Part shown: positions 1 through 64,000 of the stretch, in pieces | Position numbering within the stretch: the stretch's first letter is position 1 | Layout: every line of letters starts with the position of its first letter | Notes under the pieces: generated by a model | What the model was told of the DNA's origin: nothing | Database searches by the model: none | The model's input: only the letters and a program-made list of their open reading frames with translations | Assembly (NCBI GenBank): GCA_002706065.1 | Contig: PAJM01000020.1 | Span: 16,033 to 80,032, forward strand | Reading direction: 5' to 3' | Length of the DNA: 64,000 nucleotides | Source of the DNA: Methanobacteriota archaeon | GTDB lineage: Archaea; Thermoplasmatota; Poseidoniia; Poseidoniales; Poseidoniaceae | Made by a program: the position numbers and the translations under genes

Positions 1-177
1 CTCGTATGCGACCCCTTTGGCGTTGTTTTCATCAGAAAGAGCCTCTCCAAAGGTCATTGAAAGGAACAGGAAGGCAATGCAGACTGCGATGGTCGCAGAT
101 AGTGAAATGTTGAGTTGCGTTTTATTCCGACTTGGTGACGATTTGATGATCTCTGCATCAACAATTTCGTCTGCCAT
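1..177 (-). CDS. 5' fragment of a membrane-anchored protein running off the left window edge
   Basis: Hand translation of the minus strand from ATG at 177 gives MADEIVDAEIIKSSPSRNKTQLNISLSATIAVCIAFLFLSMTFGEALSDENNAKGVAYE. The frame is open to position 1 and contains one hydrophobic helix. It lies 39 nt downstream of the co-oriented GT gene. At 59 codons it is too short for the ORF track. Confidence 0.3.
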   Translation of the reverse strand, partial: MADEIVDAEIIKSSPSRNKTQLNISLSATIAVCIAFLFLSMTFGEALSDENNAKGVAYE

Positions 178-216
178 GACTCTCCCAAACGTTGGATATA
201 GAAGAGGATGGCGATT

Positions 217-1104
217 CTACTGCAAACGATATGAGGTTGGAACCGTCTGATTCCATTCATAGGCAGCTTGAGCGTTGAGTCCAAGTTGATCAAAGATTTT
301 CGCTGTACTATGGACTCCGTCAACGCCTTTCATCACAGCGCGAGGTGCAAGGGTTGCCAATCGAATGAACCCTTTTTCCCAAAGTGCAAGAGCCGTAATG
401 GCATCTTGTCCTGTAGGAACGGTTCGTTTCAATCGCGGACCAAACGGTGGCGGATGTGGATGTTCTGCTTCCAGCAATGTCGTTCCTTGTCGAAGGGTTC
501 GAACCTTTGAATACCGGGGTTTCATGAACCGTTTTCGTATTGCTCTCCAATCTTTGTCCGCATATGCTACACCCTGCAAATAGGCATGCTCATACTCATA
601 GAGTGTGTGTTTTATCTCCTCCCAAACCTCAACGTCTATGCAGTAGGTGTAGAAGTGCTCATGGGTTGGAACGACGATGTCGAGATCATCTTCCGTGACC
701 GCCTGTTTCGGTAAATTCCAAACTTGGACCATCCCAACATCGTTGTACTGTTTCGCCCAATCGGCAAGTTGCAGCGTCGTTTTGATAAAATTTGGACCAG
801 GAATCAAGTCATCTTCAATGAGGATCACACGTTCATAATTCTGAACATCGAAAAGATCTCTCCTTGCGCCAATGAGGTTTCGTCCAACTCCGTAATTCTC
901 TTCACGAAGAACAATTGATGTGTACGGAACACCTGAGGTTTCGATTTTTTCTTTGATCTCCGACTGTTTCGCTTTCGGGCCACCATCCACAAAATGGAAG
1001 ACATCAATGCCATCGAGATCTTCCATATTTGCTGAAAGCCCTTGAAGCAATTCTTCCATTAAATCAGGACGATTGAAACTCACTGTGAACAACGCAGTTC
1101 TCAT
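217..1104 (-). CDS. glycosyltransferase, GT-A fold (family 2-like)
   Basis: 295-aa ORF. It has an N-terminal 'LFTVSFNRPDL' strand-loop and an acidic DxD-type motif 'VILIEDDL'. Only 1 nt separates it from the upstream GT gene, so they are likely an operon. Confidence 0.6.
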   Translation of the reverse strand: MRTALFTVSFNRPDLMEELLQGLSANMEDLDGIDVFHFVDGGPKAKQSEIKEKIETSGVPYTSIVLREENYGVGRNLIGARRDLFDVQNYERVILIEDDLIPGPNFIKTTLQLADWAKQYNDVGMVQVWNLPKQAVTEDDLDIVVPTHEHFYTYCIDVEVWEEIKHTLYEYEHAYLQGVAYADKDWRAIRKRFMKPRYSKVRTLRQGTTLLEAEHPHPPPFGPRLKRTVPTGQDAITALALWEKGFIRLATLAPRAVMKGVDGVHSTAKIFDQLGLNAQAAYEWNQTVPTSYRLQ

Positions 1105-18525: not shown

Positions 18526-18550
18526 TCACAATAGTTGTTCGGCCATACAA

Positions 18551-18557
18551 TAATATA
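18551..18557 (+). promoter_or_regulatory. TATA-like box for the His/Asp-tract surface protein gene
   Basis: TAATATA within the AT-rich TAATATACAAATTATT, centred about 26 nt upstream of ATG 18580. Confidence 0.35.
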
Positions 18558-18579
18558 CAAATTATTCTTGTTGCAAGAT

Positions 18580-20904
18580 ATGAGAAAAGCACTTGCTCTT
18601 GTCCTCACTAGCCTTTTGATTGCAACAACCCTCCCAACAAGTGTTGCTGCAGATGAACCAGAACCTATTGCTTGGGGTATCGAATACGATTATTCAAACT
18701 TGAACACCGACATCGCTTCGATGATTGGAATTGACTTGCAAGAAGTCTTCCAAGAGGTTATGGCTGCTGGAGATGACTCGGGACTAGATCTTCTCATTGG
18801 AAGCGTAACCAGTGGTTCAACTACCATCGTCTTCGAACAATACGATGGCCCACTGACCACGTTGGATGTCGACGGGACACCAACCGATTTCTCAACCAAG
18901 ATGACAGAACTCACTGTACGTCACGGTCTGTTGGACGATTTTGCTGTCCACTCCGAATGGAGTGATTCATACGGTGGAATCGATCTCACAATTGGCTACG
19001 ATGCTGAGCAACTGTTCAATGCTGATGTCCTTTACACAGAGTACTTCGACTCCGCAATGGGTCTTCATGGAATGGATATGGAAATGGAAATTGAAGCAAT
19101 GATTGAGTACAATGTGGGTGTCACTGGAGAGATTTCTGGCGACGGAGAAACACTGCCATTCGATATTGATTTGACACTCGGCACCTCGTTTGACATCAAC
19201 AACGGACTGCTTGAGGTCCGCATGGATGAAGCATCGTCTATGTACAACGAGATGGCAGACCTCCAACCTGGAGAAAGCCTGCTCTGGTCTTGTGGAGATG
19301 ACCATGACGACCACGATGACCACGGCGACCATGATGACGACGGCAACCATGATGACCATGGCGACCATGATGACCATGATGACCACCATGGAGAGGTTGA
19401 ACTTACGGACCAATGTTCAGAGAGAAACATCCATTACGAAACAGAGACCTCTGTCTTGTTTGAATTAACAGGTATCCCAACAGAAGAGCTCGGTCTTCCT
19501 GCAGGCGACTTCGACTTCACAATTTCTGATACCGTCACCGACATGTACGATGGTGACGTCGAACTTTTCTTCATGGGAGGTGCGATGGAACTGCTCGATG
19601 AACCAACGCAGATGATCACCATCAATGATGGAAGCACCATCGAAGTTCACCAAGCGTATGCATCTCCGACTCCAATCGCCTTCCCTGCTATGTGGGCCAT
19701 GATGTGGGCCAACTCAGTCGTAGGTAGTGGTGATTACCCAGGTATTGTAGACGCTCTTCTCAGTGACGAAAACTTTGAGGAGATTTTTGGTGGTTTGACA
19801 GATGATTTTGGAGAGGATGATGAAGAAGACTACTTCATCTGTGCAAACCTCAATGAAATTCCATACGAGTATGTCGAGGACGGTTACGATGACTGTGGTG
19901 ACAACTCCGATGAAGAGTTCGTTTGCGATGATGGAGATATCATCCCCGGCGGCTGGGTAAATGATGGATGGGAGGATTGCACAAACGGTGAAGATGAAAC
20001 CAGTGATCAAGCAGAATCTGTTTATGTCTATGTTTACATGAACGGTGCAAGTGAATCAGAAATGAACTTTGATTACGAAGTGCAGGGCATGGAATACGAT
20101 GAGAATTACGAGATTTCTTGGACAGTCACCGATGATGAAGGAACCACATCCGATGCAGGTTCCACTGCCGTTACAGATGGATCGTACAGTTCTTACGACA
20201 GTGCTAACGCAGAAATCAATGGGTTTGGCGAGTACTGTGTCGACATCGAGGTCACCCGTTTGAGTGACAGTGAGGTTGTTGGCAACCAACAAGAGTGCGA
20301 CTCGGTTTCACAAGATATGGAGCCGAGTGAGCGACTCGTGACCATTGTCGAAGCACTTGCAGAATCGACATTGGATAACACCATGGAATCCTTTGGACAA
20401 AACCTCGAAAACCGTTTGTCCAACTTTGAGGATGATTATGACGTTGCATACGAGGATGGTATGGTGTACGCATTGTATGATGATTCTACCAACCGATTTG
20501 TTGGTTTCCAGTTGGTTGCTTCCCCCGGTGGCACACAGTGGTACACGCTTATTGGACCAGATAGCTCTGCTTACGGTACACCTTCGCGAGGTCTCTCTGT
20601 GACCTACTTCACTGGTATTGACGCAGTCGAGGAAGCCCAAGAAATCGAGGACCAAACCGATTTGACCGACCTCGTCGATGTAACGCAACACAACACCGAA
20701 GATGTTGAAGCAGTCAACGAAGGTATTGATCCTGCTACGCTCCCCGATCAGCCGATCAGTGAAGGAAACGACGAAGAGGCATCTGAAGAGACCTCCGAGG
20801 AAGATCTATCCAGCTTGCTTCCGTTCCTATCACCAGTAACCACTCTGGCCATGATTGCACTTGCAGGAATGTTTGTATCAATCCGTTCTAAGGACGAAGA
20901 ATGA
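18580..20904 (+). CDS. acidic secreted protein with (Asp/His)n tract and two 2-Cys LDL-receptor-A-like Ca-binding modules; C-terminal TM
   Basis: Start moved to 'MRKALALVLTSLLIATTLPTSVAADE' (signal peptide). HD tract 'DDHDDHDDHGDHDDDGNHDDHGDHDDHDDHH'. Modules 'FICANLNEIPYEYVEDGYDDCGDNSDE' and 'FVCDDGDIIPGGWVNDGWEDCTNGEDE' lie at nt ~19834-19995. C-terminal 'LPFLSPVTTLAMIALAGMFVSIRSK'. Confidence 0.7.
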   Translation: MRKALALVLTSLLIATTLPTSVAADEPEPIAWGIEYDYSNLNTDIASMIGIDLQEVFQEVMAAGDDSGLDLLIGSVTSGSTTIVFEQYDGPLTTLDVDGTPTDFSTKMTELTVRHGLLDDFAVHSEWSDSYGGIDLTIGYDAEQLFNADVLYTEYFDSAMGLHGMDMEMEIEAMIEYNVGVTGEISGDGETLPFDIDLTLGTSFDINNGLLEVRMDEASSMYNEMADLQPGESLLWSCGDDHDDHDDHGDHDDDGNHDDHGDHDDHDDHHGEVELTDQCSERNIHYETETSVLFELTGIPTEELGLPAGDFDFTISDTVTDMYDGDVELFFMGGAMELLDEPTQMITINDGSTIEVHQAYASPTPIAFPAMWAMMWANSVVGSGDYPGIVDALLSDENFEEIFGGLTDDFGEDDEEDYFICANLNEIPYEYVEDGYDDCGDNSDEEFVCDDGDIIPGGWVNDGWEDCTNGEDETSDQAESVYVYVYMNGASESEMNFDYEVQGMEYDENYEISWTVTDDEGTTSDAGSTAVTDGSYSSYDSANAEINGFGEYCVDIEVTRLSDSEVVGNQQECDSVSQDMEPSERLVTIVEALAESTLDNTMESFGQNLENRLSNFEDDYDVAYEDGMVYALYDDSTNRFVGFQLVASPGGTQWYTLIGPDSSAYGTPSRGLSVTYFTGIDAVEEAQEIEDQTDLTDLVDVTQHNTEDVEAVNEGIDPATLPDQPISEGNDEEASEETSEEDLSSLLPFLSPVTTLAMIALAGMFVSIRSKDEE
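19297..19389 (+). repeat. coding GAY/CAY low-complexity tract (31 codons of Asp/His/Gly)
   Basis: gatgaccatgacgaccacgatgaccacggcgaccatgatgac... read directly from the sequence; it is in frame within the 18580 CDS. Confidence 0.85.
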
Positions 20905-60519: not shown

Positions 60520-62025
60520 TCATTCATCTCCTGAAATCCATTGATTGTTTGTCTGTTTTACCCGTTGCGCACGTTCATGCGACAAAAGATGAGCGAGTGT
60601 TTGATCTTGGGCAAGTCCAGGGTGCGCATTCGGTGTGTTTTCGTAGGCCTTGATGGAGATTTCAGAGAGTGTTCGAAATCCATCATTTACTGCATCGAGG
60701 ACGCGCTGATGCCGTTCCATTCGATGCTTGATATAGTATCCAAGCGTTTTCTCTGGAAGAGGGATGACAGGTCCATGACTCGGAAACATGAGGTGTGGTC
60801 GTAAATTCAGCAACCGTTGAAGCTGTTCGATGTAGACATCCATATCACCCGTTTCTGGGGGAACAAGAATTGTACCAATCCCTGCTACCATATCTCCAGC
60901 GACAAGACCAGCTTCAGAAAGGAGGCAAATGTGACCGGGATGATGGCCTGGAGTGATGAGAACCGTCCATTCTTGGTTCCCAAGGTTGAGAACTTCGCCA
61001 TCGGACAGAATTCGATTGCAATGGACGGATTTTGAGGTATATTCACTTCCCCAAACCGGAACATCAAACGCCTCTCGAAGCAAATCCATATCGCCGATAT
61101 GATCTCCATGAGAATGTGTGAAAAGAATGGCGATCAATTCTCCACGATGTCGATCGACCGCTTCAGCAAGTTCTTCCATTCCCTCACGCATTCGGCAGGC
61201 AGGATCGACGAGAATAAATTCGCCCTCCGGATCACCGACGAGATAGGCATTGGTGTGATCAGCTGGAGGGAGTGTTGCAGTCTTGACTGGAAGGACCTCA
61301 ACACCATGGGCAAACAGGATTGAGCGTCGGCCAGGCTGACGTTCTTGCAAATCTTCGGCGGTTTGAATCATGTTTCCATTGAAATGATTCAGAGTTCGAT
61401 CAACCTCCATCAATAAGGTGACGACAGGTGGAGCCACACGGATTTCGTGTCGCTTCCATCGTTCGATCATCTCCGATGGTTTCATCCATTCCAAAGCAGT
61501 AAACTCTGTTTGCAAATCTGTAGAAGGATTGAACACTTGATCTCCAATGTGCAGGTGAAAGAATGTGTTCTCAAATTGAATCGGTCCAAACGGAGGGGTC
61601 GTTCGACTTGATATGTGACGTAATTCCGAGGTATCCAAGGTCATCTTTCCATCGTTCAGAGCCTCAATGAACGTACCTTTGTCCACAAGGATGCGTTTAC
61701 GAAGGTCAACATCAATCGTGGCAACGGCTTCACCGTTTGGAACAACACCCAACTCTTCTGTCATCTCACGAACAACAGCGACAACAGAAGAAGTCGAGCC
61801 ACTCGTCGCATTCTGAACAAATGTCTCGCCTTCATGATCTGTCCTCGATACCCCGCCCCCCGGAAACGCCCAGTAGCCAGGAAATGCCCGCATGGTTTCT
61901 GCACGCCGTCCTAAGAGAACTTCAACACCGTTTTGCCCATCACGAGTGAGCGTCAACGTTACCGTAGGTCGTGGGGGCTTCCTCGCAAATGCGGGAAGGT
62001 TCACACCCTCGGGTACTTCGCTCAT
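60520..62025 (-). CDS. Nudix-like domain fused to MBL-fold metallo-hydrolase
   Basis: The N-terminal 'GYWAFPGGGVSRTD...VVREMTEELGV' is a Nudix box with an insertion. The C-terminal part has 'FTHSHGDHIGD' (HxHxDH) and 'ITPGHHPGHICL'. There is no gap to the downstream Qor gene. Confidence 0.7.
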   Translation of the reverse strand: MSEVPEGVNLPAFARKPPRPTVTLTLTRDGQNGVEVLLGRRAETMRAFPGYWAFPGGGVSRTDHEGETFVQNATSGSTSSVVAVVREMTEELGVVPNGEAVATIDVDLRKRILVDKGTFIEALNDGKMTLDTSELRHISSRTTPPFGPIQFENTFFHLHIGDQVFNPSTDLQTEFTALEWMKPSEMIERWKRHEIRVAPPVVTLLMEVDRTLNHFNGNMIQTAEDLQERQPGRRSILFAHGVEVLPVKTATLPPADHTNAYLVGDPEGEFILVDPACRMREGMEELAEAVDRHRGELIAILFTHSHGDHIGDMDLLREAFDVPVWGSEYTSKSVHCNRILSDGEVLNLGNQEWTVLITPGHHPGHICLLSEAGLVAGDMVAGIGTILVPPETGDMDVYIEQLQRLLNLRPHLMFPSHGPVIPLPEKTLGYYIKHRMERHQRVLDAVNDGFRTLSEISIKAYENTPNAHPGLAQDQTLAHLLSHERAQRVKQTNNQWISGDE

Positions 62026-62065: not shown

Positions 62066-64000
62066 TCATTCGTTTCGTCGAATGAATGCAGCTCCGAGGA
62101 GTGCAAGCATTCCAACGATTCCAGTGAACCCTGGTGCATCATGCATTGGGTTTTCATCGCTGTAGGCATCTGCGGAGATGGAGTACAAACGAACTTCGTC
62201 CCAATCAACATCGGTTTCACCAATGTGAATCATGTCACCTGCGGAGATTGTTCCTGAACTGTCAGCATCGTGGAACATGAGAGTGGAATCCATTTCAGCA
62301 TCTGCGATTGTGATGGACATTTGGGACGTGCACGTCTTGGTTTCTTCACCAGTGTCCATGTCATAGTCGTAATCGCATGATGCGAGTTCAATCTTGTAGT
62401 CGGACATATCTCCTTCGACGAAGTCTAATTCAGATTCGATGTAAAATACCATCTCGTCTGAATCTTCTCCATGTTCTTCACCATGGTCGTGGTCATCATG
62501 GTCGTCTCCATGGTCGTCGTGGTCATCATGATCGTCTCCATGGTCGTCGTGGTCATCATGATCGTCTCCATGGTCGTCGTGATCACCATGATCGTCTCCA
62601 TGATCGTCGTGATCATCATGGTCATCACCGTGGTCATGGTCATCATCCATGTCTAGCATTTCATCGTCGCCATCAGGACAATCTTCAGCCCCATCATTGA
62701 CTTGTGAAATCCATACTTGACTTCCATCCATGCAGTCAAACCAGTTGATTTCATTGCCATCACTGTCGTATTGCTGCTCATCAGCACCATCTGCACAGTC
62801 AGATTCGCCGTCGTTGACGTAATCGAATGGAATTTCTGTTCCATCGCCACAAATGAATGTAATTTCTACTAGATCATCTCCTCTCGAAATACATTCCCAG
62901 CCAGTATTGTCTGATAACTCAGTACAATCCTCGATTTCATAACCATCACTCATCATTATTTCGCCGTCAGAATCCAACCAATCATTCATCCAACATTCCA
63001 AGGGACTGTCATCTGGATCGCTGCTTTCTGTACAGCCATCATAGAATATCATGTCTTCATAATCATCATCACTCAATCCTGAAAGAACGAGATAGATGTA
63101 ATCAAATTCATCTTCTGAGAGATTTTCATCCACATCGTCATCCGCAAAATCAAACAAATCTTGCAAACCGATGTCGTCAACATCCATGTCATAGCCATCG
63201 TTGGCGAGGTCCATCTCTACACAATACAGAAGTTCATCGTAGTCGATGAGCATATTTCCATCTGTGTCACATTCTGTAAATTCTCGGTAGAATGTCCACA
63301 TCTCGTCGTCATCCATGCCGTCTTCGTCCTCTCCGTTGGTACAGTCTTCAACACCATCGTTGACCCAGTCCATTGGAATTGTGAAACCATCATCGCAGGT
63401 AAATTCATCTTCACCCATCGAGTCTTCGTCTTCTCCACCTGAACAGTCTTCCATTCCATCATTTACCCAATCCATTGGGATAGATTCGCCATCGTCGCAG
63501 ATGAATTGGTCATCGGAGCCCCATGGATCGAGTTCGTCAGAAACCGTGAACGGAAGAGCAACAACTTCACCAGCATCAACGCCTGTGAAAAGTGAGTTAA
63601 CCCTGTCATCAGTGAGAACGTACATTTTCATTACAGTAAGTTCCTCTCCCATTTCGTCCATTGCCATTTCGAAATATTCGATTTCACCAGCATTGTTGAA
63701 TGCAATCTTCATTGCCGGCATTTCATCAACATCGCCGTCGTCGTGATCATCATCGTCACCATGGTCGTCGTCATGCCCATAATATTCGTCAACAGCCTCA
63801 ATAAATGCTCCGAGTTCGTCAACAGTGAGTTCACCATCAGCATCAGCGTCAGCATCGTCAAAGGCTGTTTGCATAGCAGTCATTGAATCTTGTTCGGTGT
63901 CATCAACAGTCATGAATTCTTCAAATGAAACGCCTCCGCTGCCATCAATATCGGCAACACACAAAGCCATTTCCGGGGATGGAGCATCATCGTTCATACC
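62066..64000 (-). CDS. acidic surface protein (paralog of 18580-20904): EF-hand-like loops, four 2-Cys LDLa-like modules, expanded (Asp/His)n tract, PGF-CTERM; 5' end probably beyond the window
   Basis: Modules: 'FICDDGESIPMDWVNDGMEDCSGGEDE', 'FTCDDGFTIPMDWVNDGVEDCTNGEDE', 'FICGDGTEIPFDYVNDGESDCADGADE' and 'FDCMDGSQVWISQVNDGAEDCPDGDDE'. The HD tract is 61 aa (nt 62465-62647). EF loops 'DIDGSGGVSFEE' and 'DADADGELTVDE'. The C-terminus is 'PGFTGIVGMLALLGAAFIRRNE'. No signal peptide follows the first in-window Met, and the frame is open to nt 64000. Confidence 0.7.
   Translation of the reverse strand, partial: GMNDDAPSPEMALCVADIDGSGGVSFEEFMTVDDTEQDSMTAMQTAFDDADADADGELTVDELGAFIEAVDEYYGHDDDHGDDDDHDDGDVDEMPAMKIAFNNAGEIEYFEMAMDEMGEELTVMKMYVLTDDRVNSLFTGVDAGEVVALPFTVSDELDPWGSDDQFICDDGESIPMDWVNDGMEDCSGGEDEDSMGEDEFTCDDGFTIPMDWVNDGVEDCTNGEDEDGMDDDEMWTFYREFTECDTDGNMLIDYDELLYCVEMDLANDGYDMDVDDIGLQDLFDFADDDVDENLSEDEFDYIYLVLSGLSDDDYEDMIFYDGCTESSDPDDSPLECWMNDWLDSDGEIMMSDGYEIEDCTELSDNTGWECISRGDDLVEITFICGDGTEIPFDYVNDGESDCADGADEQQYDSDGNEINWFDCMDGSQVWISQVNDGAEDCPDGDDEMLDMDDDHDHGDDHDDHDDHGDDHGDHDDHGDDHDDHDDHGDDHDDHDDHGDDHDDHDHGEEHGEDSDEMVFYIESELDFVEGDMSDYKIELASCDYDYDMDTGEETKTCTSQMSITIADAEMDSTLMFHDADSSGTISAGDMIHIGETDVDWDEVRLYSISADAYSDENPMHDAPGFTGIVGMLALLGAAFIRRNE
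62481..62640 (-). repeat. tandem 30-bp coding repeat (at least 4 near-identical units, encodes HDDHDDHGDD)
   Basis: Plus-strand units are (a/g)tcgtctccatggtcgtcgtggtcatcatg at 62501, 62531 and 62561, and a unit at 62591 with 2-3 substitutions. Degenerate copies flank them. Confidence 0.85.

Follow-up and report, generated by a model that had tools for sequence, protein, structure and literature searches.

The window analysed here, a stretch of 64,000 nucleotides (nt) from an archaeon of the family Poseidoniaceae (G000:C20:16033-80032), ends inside a minus-strand gene for a large and very acidic protein with signals for export and membrane anchoring. On balance, we favour the view that this is a cation-loaded, outward-facing coat or capture protein that is lipid-anchored at both ends. 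Its N-terminus has a lipobox, its C-terminus has a sorting signal of the PGF-CTERM type, and between two conserved terminal blocks lies a variable middle with modules related to those of the LDL receptor and a tract of His and Asp residues (HD tract).

The open reading frame (ORF) listing gives a 644-residue (aa) minus-strand frame at 62066..64000, whose 5' end is open at the window edge. The sequence-only reading, an earlier annotation made from the letters of the window without database searches, expected the gene to run on past this edge. This proved correct: following the contig adds 224 codons up to an ATG and recovers the true N-terminus, which begins MKKTLALLLVASLLLAGC, in a full protein of 868 aa. 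The whole gene covers L011:599-3205 on the minus strand, that is, 62066-64672 in virtual window coordinates and G000:C20:78098-80704 on the contig. Asp makes up 21 % and Glu 11 % of the protein (32 % acidic), while Lys and Arg together reach only 1.5 %, for a net charge of about -256. The mature chain has a single N-glycosylation sequon, and the 21 Cys of the protein can be divided into Cys18 and ten local pairs that follow one another along the chain. All the strings that the earlier annotation had quoted (DIDGSGGVSFEE, DADADGELTVDE, GHDDDHGDDDDHDDGD and PGFTGIVGMLALLGAAFIRRNE) are present in the translation. Its assignment of the host to the archaea agrees with the named homologs, which belong to Candidatus Poseidoniaceae archaea (Marine Group IIa) and are labelled 'Candidatus Poseidoniaceae archaeon'. 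A word-indexed search gave 462 relatives; counts for the family refer below to 121 proteins, the query and 120 listed matches, and residue conservation to an alignment with 69 homologs.

Anchor signals at the two ends of the chain

In translation, the N-terminus MKK-TLALLLVASLL-LAGC reads as a signal peptide of the Sec type that closes with a lipobox, LAGC agreeing with the pattern [LVI][ASTVI][GAS]C of lipobox lipoproteins. Residues L13-L15, A16, G17, C18, T19 and E20 are invariant among the aligned homologs. The lipobox is found in 119 of the 121 proteins; one of the two exceptions has a truncated N-terminus and the other a long, mis-called N-terminal extension. Wherever a lipobox can be recognised, in all 119 cases, an even number of Cys follows the lipobox Cys, which fits one unpaired, lipidated Cys together with local disulfide pairs. 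This parity is not clean in distant relatives from elsewhere in the order, whose start sites were chosen crudely. At least five further ORFs of the genome are of the lipobox type. In Haloferax volcanii, archaeal lipobox lipoproteins depend on AliA/AliB (Nat Commun 2025, PMC12462473). The present protein has in common with such lipoproteins the charged MKK n-region, the hydrophobic core, the L-A-G-C motif and the invariant Cys, but differs from them in bearing a second, C-terminal lipid-anchor signal. We thus regard the N-terminus as a lipoprotein-type signal and the protein as probably lipid-anchored at both ends.

The tail that would provide the second anchor consists of PGF, a hydrophobic helix (hydropathy 2.07 over a 17-residue window) and RRNE directly before the stop codon. 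P847, G848 and F849 are invariant in the alignment, and the four residues preceding them are variable. PGF is present in 121 of 121 proteins; all 120 listed homologs end in ...PGFTG.VGMLALLGAAFIRRNE, and nearly all start with MKKTLALLLVASLLLAGCTEL. The tripartite build of PGF, helix and Arg cluster that the earlier annotation had recognised as a PGF-CTERM signal is therefore there, although the tail misses the cut-offs of the curated hidden Markov models (HMMs).

The case for this signal comes from its context. A genome-wide search for archaeosortase A (ArtA), which had been proposed as a check, was positive: a 316-aa ORF at G000:C17:92413-93264 scores 91.7-93.1 bits with TIGR04125 (cut-off 75 bits). 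ArtA was also found above the cut-off, as a single match, in all 18 Poseidoniales genomes tested. At 83 % completeness, the genome contains four PGF tails: that of the protein under study and those of proteins on C15, C40 and C27. Their local consensus is [ED][TA]-PGF, about 17 hydrophobic residues and RR, and the C15 tail passes TIGR04126 at 29.3 bits. The signal peptides of the C15, C40 and C27 proteins are plain and lack a lipobox. It is because ArtA is present, because three other proteins of the genome have PGF tails and because PGF is invariant, and not because of an HMM score, that we accept the tail as a putative PGF-CTERM signal for processing by ArtA.

Known PGF-CTERM/ArtA substrates resemble this protein in several respects: PGF at the extreme C-terminus followed by about 15 hydrophobic residues and Arg-Arg, ArtA encoded in the genome, several tailed proteins per genome, and a large, acidic, secreted chain. 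It departs from them in its sub-threshold HMM score, in having no Thr-rich linker and only one N-glycosylation sequon, in carrying a lipobox instead of a plain signal peptide and in using Ca2+ modules instead of immunoglobulin (Ig)-like domains. Our literature search turned up nothing that connects Marine Group II with PGF-CTERM or with LDL-receptor modules.

Two other genes connected with ArtA and its candidate substrates deserve mention. Directly adjoining artA, L009:180-1469 (+) encodes a membrane protein that is very acidic and contains EF-hands as well as thrombospondin-type-3-like Asp repeats. The PGF-CTERM protein on C27 (G000:C27:5180-6178, minus strand) shows by eye a fasciclin-like region and a cupredoxin-type copper site, YYACEPHVSMKMHG, and resembles a halocyanin-type electron carrier on an ArtA anchor.

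Conserved terminal blocks and a variable, putatively metal-binding middle

Members of the family listed are between 565 and 1239 aa long. An N-terminal block (residues 1-380) and a C-terminal block (741-868) are present throughout the aligned homologs, and the N-terminal domain within the first block has an alignment occupancy of about 1.0. AlphaFold2 models this domain with moderate confidence, at a predicted local distance difference test (pLDDT) of 70-90 locally and 70.8 overall, with a predicted template modelling score (pTM) of 0.61. The small beta domain that follows has strands at residues 321-325, 331-338 and 346-352.

Searched exhaustively against 1.84 billion representative proteins, residues 19-235 have 25 relatives in all, and none of these ties them to a known family; the full-length matches begin at about residue 19-30, right after the lipobox. 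The N-terminal domain is a lineage-specific orphan domain. Foldseek gave no match to it at E <= 1e-3, whether the query was the whole model or the domain folded by itself. The model shows a long antiparallel sheet that is curved and packed on helices, and LolA structures, with their open beta-barrel, recur among the best fold matches. However, the LolA-type matches are weak (E 9e-3 to 0.1, probability 0.44-0.95, TM-score 0.27-0.37, root-mean-square deviation (rmsd) about 10 A) and have no counterpart in sequence, and membership in the LolA/LolB family was not accepted.

The predicted calcium-binding modules begin with a pair of EF-hands next to the N-terminal domain. Both 12-residue loops (241-252 and 277-288) have the canonical D1, D3, S/D5, G6, hydrophobic 8 and E12, and EF-hand_1 (PF00036) scores 40-41.9 bits against a cut-off of 25.4. 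By sequence the pair matches calcineurin B (E about 2e-3), and its model superposes on the EF pairs of berovin and calaxin with an rmsd of 2.4-2.8 A (probability 0.96-1.0). The EF-hand-type loops read from the letters alone are thus confirmed, and the same is true of four LDL-receptor class A-like (LDLa-like) modules: Ldl_recept_a (PF00057) matches four stretches at 57.2 bits, or 54.8 on the full-length protein, against a cut-off of 24.1. Modules 1 and 2 are a tandem duplication still visible in the DNA as a 102-nt repeat of 1.8 copies with 74 % matches (window 63320-63507).

The LDLa-like modules are a reduced version of the class. They share with VLDLR, ApoER2, CD320 and the G2B domain the register F-x-C...W-x-x-D-G-x-x-D-C-x-x-G-x-D-E and its acidic Ca2+ cage, but have two Cys instead of six and a predicted single disulfide instead of three, and they belong to an archaeal protein. 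Aligned to VLDLR with phmmer, they keep Cys II and V, replace III by Ser/Thr and IV by Asn, and lack I and VI, so that the six-Cys, three-disulfide arrangement (I-III, II-V, IV-VI) is not reproduced. In the LDLa fold Cys II pairs with Cys V. One disulfide per module, together with Ca2+, is therefore expected. None of the four modules has lost the calcium-cage residues DG..DC...DE; as the aromatic residue ahead of them, modules 1, 2 and 3 carry W, W and Y, whereas in module 4 it has shifted from its place. Modules 3 and 4 match VLDLR and the G2B domain of glucosidase II beta (27.8 bits). Foldseek returns the LA pairs of ApoER2, VLDLR and CD320 with a probability of 1.0 and 35-42 % identity, yet the rmsd over the pairs is 9-12 A. 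The pLDDT is 60-80 over the modules and drops to about 30 in the variable insert, which has a second pair of EF-hand-like loops.

Of the two HD tracts reported from the letters alone, both exist, but the long one has 62 residues and not 61. It is built from a 10-aa unit of the DDHDDHDDHG type, encoded by a 30-nt tandem repeat (5 copies, 91 % matches, window 62486-62635). HD tracts are restricted to 49 of the 121 proteins. Being optional and of variable length, it has to be an accessory feature.

A clue to its role comes from elsewhere in the genome, where HD tracts occur in only a handful of ORFs. The richest of these is split across the ends of two contigs. The piece on C1 (G000:C1:3-1220, minus strand) has a lipobox and matches positions 1-73 of the ZnuA profile, while the piece on C14 (G000:C14:2-1276, plus strand) matches positions 97-262; the two loci are L023 and L024. 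The HD tracts occupy the gap between positions 73 and 97, roughly the place of the known His-rich loop. The two pieces are likely one ZnuA gene broken by the assembly within hundreds of HD-repeat residues, and the His-rich insert of this ZnuA-family lipoprotein is unusually large. The gene is followed by an ABC_tran ATPase (ZnuC-like) and an ABC-3 permease (ZnuB-like) and adjoins a divergent NikR-like regulator. Because similar tracts interrupt the ZnuA lipoprotein of the same genome, the analogy suggests that HD tracts in this organism may serve the capture of transition metals, those of the Zn type being the likeliest. The tract of the surface protein is like the His-rich loop of ZnuA and cluster A-I proteins (PF01297) in being a long, disordered His/Asp/Gly run. 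It differs from that loop in lying in a surface protein that is not part of a transporter and has no ZnuA fold, and in being optional and variable in copy number.

The middle of the protein changes between strains by loss of cassettes, recombination and repeat slippage. In the HD tract, alleles with about 97 % identity lack exactly one or two repeat units, a difference of 10 or 20 aa. In allele P0004, otherwise about 97 % identical, residues 536-598 are gone as one 63-aa block, which lowers the number of Cys from 21 to 17. P0005 has diverged over its first 300 or so residues and is near-identical over the C-terminal 470 or so; it is therefore a recombinant.

The gene nevertheless sits at a fixed chromosomal locus. 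Four genomes of the genus and a fifth from a sister genus all have it upstream of the same gene for a fusion of a NUDIX and a metallo-beta-lactamase (MBL) fold; the three loci of the genus with enough upstream flank also share orf305 and the 2-oxoacid oxidoreductase genes upstream of the surface gene. Neighbouring genes are 77-93 % identical within the genus, compared with 41-54 % for the surface gene over its aligned parts: the locus is fixed, yet the gene is hypervariable. At the termini, the fraction of identical codons among identical residues is 0.69-0.84 within the genus (0.39-0.71 against the more distant G136), and 0.48-0.54 in the flanking gene; this synonymous conservation is a weak hint that comes from 20-40 codons only.

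Role of the protein and competing explanations

How these parts might work together can be outlined as follows. After export, Cys18 would be lipidated and the signal peptide removed, and ArtA would cut near PGF and attach a lipid, leaving a mature chain of approximately residues 18-849 tethered to the membrane at both ends. With such a two-end tether the two conserved domains would lie close to the membrane and the variable cassettes would form an exposed, outward apex, a geometry that would explain the pattern of conservation. The Ca2+ concentration of seawater is about 10 mM. The EF-hand and LDLa sites would therefore always be full and would act as structural rivets and not as sensors. The HD tract would bind scarce transition metals, most likely Zn2+, and pressure to diversify, for instance from viruses, probably acts on the exposed part.

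Several points weigh against this picture. The tail scores 13.2 with PF18204, below the cut-off of 18.8, and 17.2 with TIGR04126, below the cut-off of 24.5 (21.8 in whole-genome mode). The sequence-only reading had called the signal textbook and had itself named a sub-threshold HMM score as a result that would speak against it; with both profiles below threshold, the word has to go. In the searchable literature we found no published protein that combines a lipobox with a PGF-CTERM, which leaves the double anchor without precedent, and we know of no evidence for the processing or lipidation of any Marine Group II protein. The variable middle is modelled at low confidence (pLDDT 27-45). Finally, the HD tract is absent from 72 of the 121 proteins and hence cannot be the core function, and we infer its metal binding from composition and from the ZnuA analogy.

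The distribution of the family within the order Poseidoniales bears on whether the protein could be the main S-layer-like coat subunit of Marine Group II, abundant, doubly tethered, encoded once per genome and forming a calcium-bridged layer. Of 151 genomes, 70 encode the C-terminal domain with the PGF tail (residues 741-868), nearly always in a single copy, and they include members of both families of the order. When 12 loci were sampled across the order, an ORF was recovered in 11; at least eight have a lipobox-type N-terminus, all 11 end in an LPGF[TG]...RR tail, and these relatives contain 22-29 % Asp plus Glu and mostly LDLa-like or EF-hand modules. As the C-terminal domain and tail are found in both families of the order, the gene is one genus's version of a wider, order-level family whose members bear both anchor signals. 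All of this would suit a principal coat protein, as would the fact that the 868-aa protein is the largest of the four ArtA-substrate candidates of its genome and that the haloarchaeal S-layer glycoprotein is the classic PGF-CTERM substrate (PMC7157517). However, a match is found in only 26 of 58 high-quality genomes, and the N-terminal domain (residues 19-380) in only 15 of the 151, with strong matches almost only in the home genus and several of the 15 covering just the EF-hand pair. Moreover, the single N-glycosylation sequon and the lack of a Thr-rich linker before PGF set the protein apart from haloarchaeal S-layer glycoproteins, and the model predicts no lattice-forming Ig-like array. We therefore consider a main coat subunit unlikely.

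An alternative starts from the LDLa-like modules and sees the protein mainly as a ligand-capture receptor or adhesin, in which, as in animal proteins of the LDL-receptor family, Ca2+-loaded acidic pockets with a Trp would grip peptides, proteins, polyamines or particles bearing Lys or Arg for this heterotroph, which degrades protein. The retained cage and the aromatic residue in three of the four modules speak for such a grip, and the modules occur in most family members (occupancy about 0.8), lie at the predicted outward apex and share the window with several other large surface proteins. The receptor reading nevertheless looks doubtful: the neighbours at the locus are NUDIX-MBL, tRNA and 2-oxoacid oxidoreductase genes, with no linked gene for a partner, a transporter or a protease, and the number of modules varies from 0 to 5 among close relatives (by pattern count), which suits a role as spacer or coat equally well.

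We would give a rather small chance to a combined reading in which this order-wide, once-per-genome protein, with a lipid at each end, is the principal calcium-bridged coat, its loop being reshuffled under pressure from viruses and its HD tract acting as a zinc antenna for ZnuABC. Least probable of all, and in our opinion very improbable, is an ordinary C-terminal transmembrane anchor that ArtA leaves unprocessed, giving a type I protein with RRNE as a cytoplasmic stub and possibly cleaved by signal peptidase I: the sub-threshold scores and the 51 ORFs of the genome with plain C-terminal anchor tails would agree with it, but a plain helix would not impose an invariant PGF in 121 of 121 proteins while the four preceding residues vary, nor does it explain why the motif recurs across the order as LPGF[TG], why ArtA is present in every genome tested or why three other proteins of the genome have the same tail consensus, one of them above the HMM cut-off.

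Few microbes of the surface ocean are as abundant as the archaea of Marine Group II; to our knowledge, none has been cultured and their cell envelope is uncharacterised. If the double anchor and the metal binding of the coat or capture protein that we favour are real, it would offer a first molecular entry point to the surface of Marine Group II cells, a connection from surface proteins to the capture of trace metals that can be put to the test, and a natural case in which a surface gene keeps its anchors constant and reshuffles its exposed part. The parts themselves are all known, and hundreds of unstudied relatives are in the databases; what is new is the variant and the combination. Two separately known archaeal anchor signals are joined on one chain, the calcium module of the LDL receptor appears in a minimal, one-disulfide form, and a repeat-encoded His/Asp tract like that of a zinc-uptake protein is added to it. 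A Red Sea metatranscriptome that could speak for the main-coat reading reported that 93 % of the euryarchaeal RNA-Seq reads came from 13 mRNAs of Marine Group II, which code for surface-type proteins described as 'disordered' (PMC5069720). Hyper-acidic proteins like the one described here would score as disordered, and members of this family might be among the 13.

Feature coordinates, other sorting signals and neighbouring genes

Table 1. Features of the 868-aa surface protein, all on the minus strand (positions in the window; virtual positions continue the count past its end). Occupancy is that in the homolog alignment.
Feature	Position	Strand	Residues	Occupancy	Remarks
Stop codon	62066-62068	-			from ORF listing and translation
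Part of the gene in the window	62066..64000	-	225-868 + stop		about 3/4 of the protein
PGF-CTERM-type sorting signal (putative)	62069..62134	-	847-868		PGF, TGIVGMLALLGAAFI, RRNE
C-terminal beta domain	62177..62452	-	741-832	1.0	
Long HD tract	62462..62647	-	676-737	0.28-0.40 (681-720)	62 aa of H/D/G/E, 18 His
LDLa-like module 4	62660..62740	-	645-671	~0.8 (606-671)	FDCMDGSQVWISQVNDGAEDCPDGDDE; Pfam and alignment
LDLa-like module 3	62777..62857	-	606-632	~0.8 (606-671)	FICGDGTEIPFDYVNDGESDCADGADE; Pfam
Four-Cys cassette	62891..63034	-	547-594		C547, C560, C583, C594
Variable insert, second EF-hand-like loop pair	63089..63271	-	468-528	0.18-0.37 (461-540)	bracketed by C468 and C484
LDLa-like module 2	63323..63403	-	424-450	~0.8 (390-450)	FTCDDGFTIPMDWVNDGVEDCTNGEDE; tandem duplicate of module 1
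LDLa-like module 1	63425..63505	-	390-416	~0.8 (390-450)	FICDDGESIPMDWVNDGMEDCSGGEDE; two Cys, C392 and C410; PF00057
Small beta domain	63539..63715	-	320-378	0.92-1.0	ends the conserved N-terminal block
Short HD tract	63731..63778	-	299-314		GHDDDHGDDDDHDDGD; 16 aa; pLDDT <50, predicted disordered
EF-hand pair	63776..63976	-	233-299		loops DIDGSGGVSFEE (241-252) and DADADGELTVDE (277-288)
N-terminal domain, end inside the window	63977..64000	-	~225-232		
N-terminal beta-sheet/helix domain	virtual 63977-64618; L011:2510-3151	-	19-232		mostly outside the window
Signal peptide and lipobox	virtual 64619-64672; L011:3152-3205	-	1-18		outside the window; starts MKKTLALLLVASLLLAGC

The window contains another large protein with LDLa-like modules, encoded at 18535..20904 (+), of which the 868-aa protein had been taken as a paralog and second family member. 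This relationship does not hold: the similarity found by BLASTP (56 % over 61 aa) is restricted to the LDLa-like modules, and paralogy was rejected. HD tracts are common to both proteins, and their scaffold domains are unrelated. The 18535 protein has a plain signal peptide and a tail without PGF, LPFLSP...SIRSKDEE. To judge from these sequences, the two share modules but not whole-chain ancestry and are probably anchored differently, as the earlier annotation had suggested.

The tail of the 18535 protein has counterparts. About ten ORFs have tails of the [LI]P...P type, namely window 18535-20904 (+) and some nine on C2, C3, C5, C6, C11, C40 and C43. They are laid out as an acidic stretch, [L/I]P...P (as in LPFLSPVTT, LPAVPIPLT and LPVLLPIVI), a hydrophobic helix and basic residues, and may form a second class of sorting signal. 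VPXXXP-CTERM (TIGR04143) was not detected as the signal in these non-PGF tails. The genome also has a second gene of the exosortase/archaeosortase family, coding for 362 aa on G000:C5 (L010:1025-2113, plus strand). With 39.4 bits it passes the general signature TIGR04178 (cut-off 23), and no named subtype (ArtA-H, Xrt) fits it.

On the downstream side of the surface gene, the 501-aa gene at window 60520-62025 (-) starts 40 nt past the stop codon; by eye its product is a NUDIX and metallo-beta-lactamase-fold fusion. This is the NUDIX-MBL gene that keeps its position in five related genomes, at 59-88 % identity, and we see no sign of a functional connection with the surface protein. Upstream, the promoter and terminator scan relied on bacterial-type models and is uninformative for an archaeal gene. 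By eye, an AT-rich box, GATTAATAAGAG, lies about 25-35 nt 5' of the ATG and may be a TATA element. Further upstream, about 340 nt from the start of the surface protein, a tRNA-Gln (CTG) is encoded at L011:3545-3620 (+), or 65012-65087 in virtual window coordinates.

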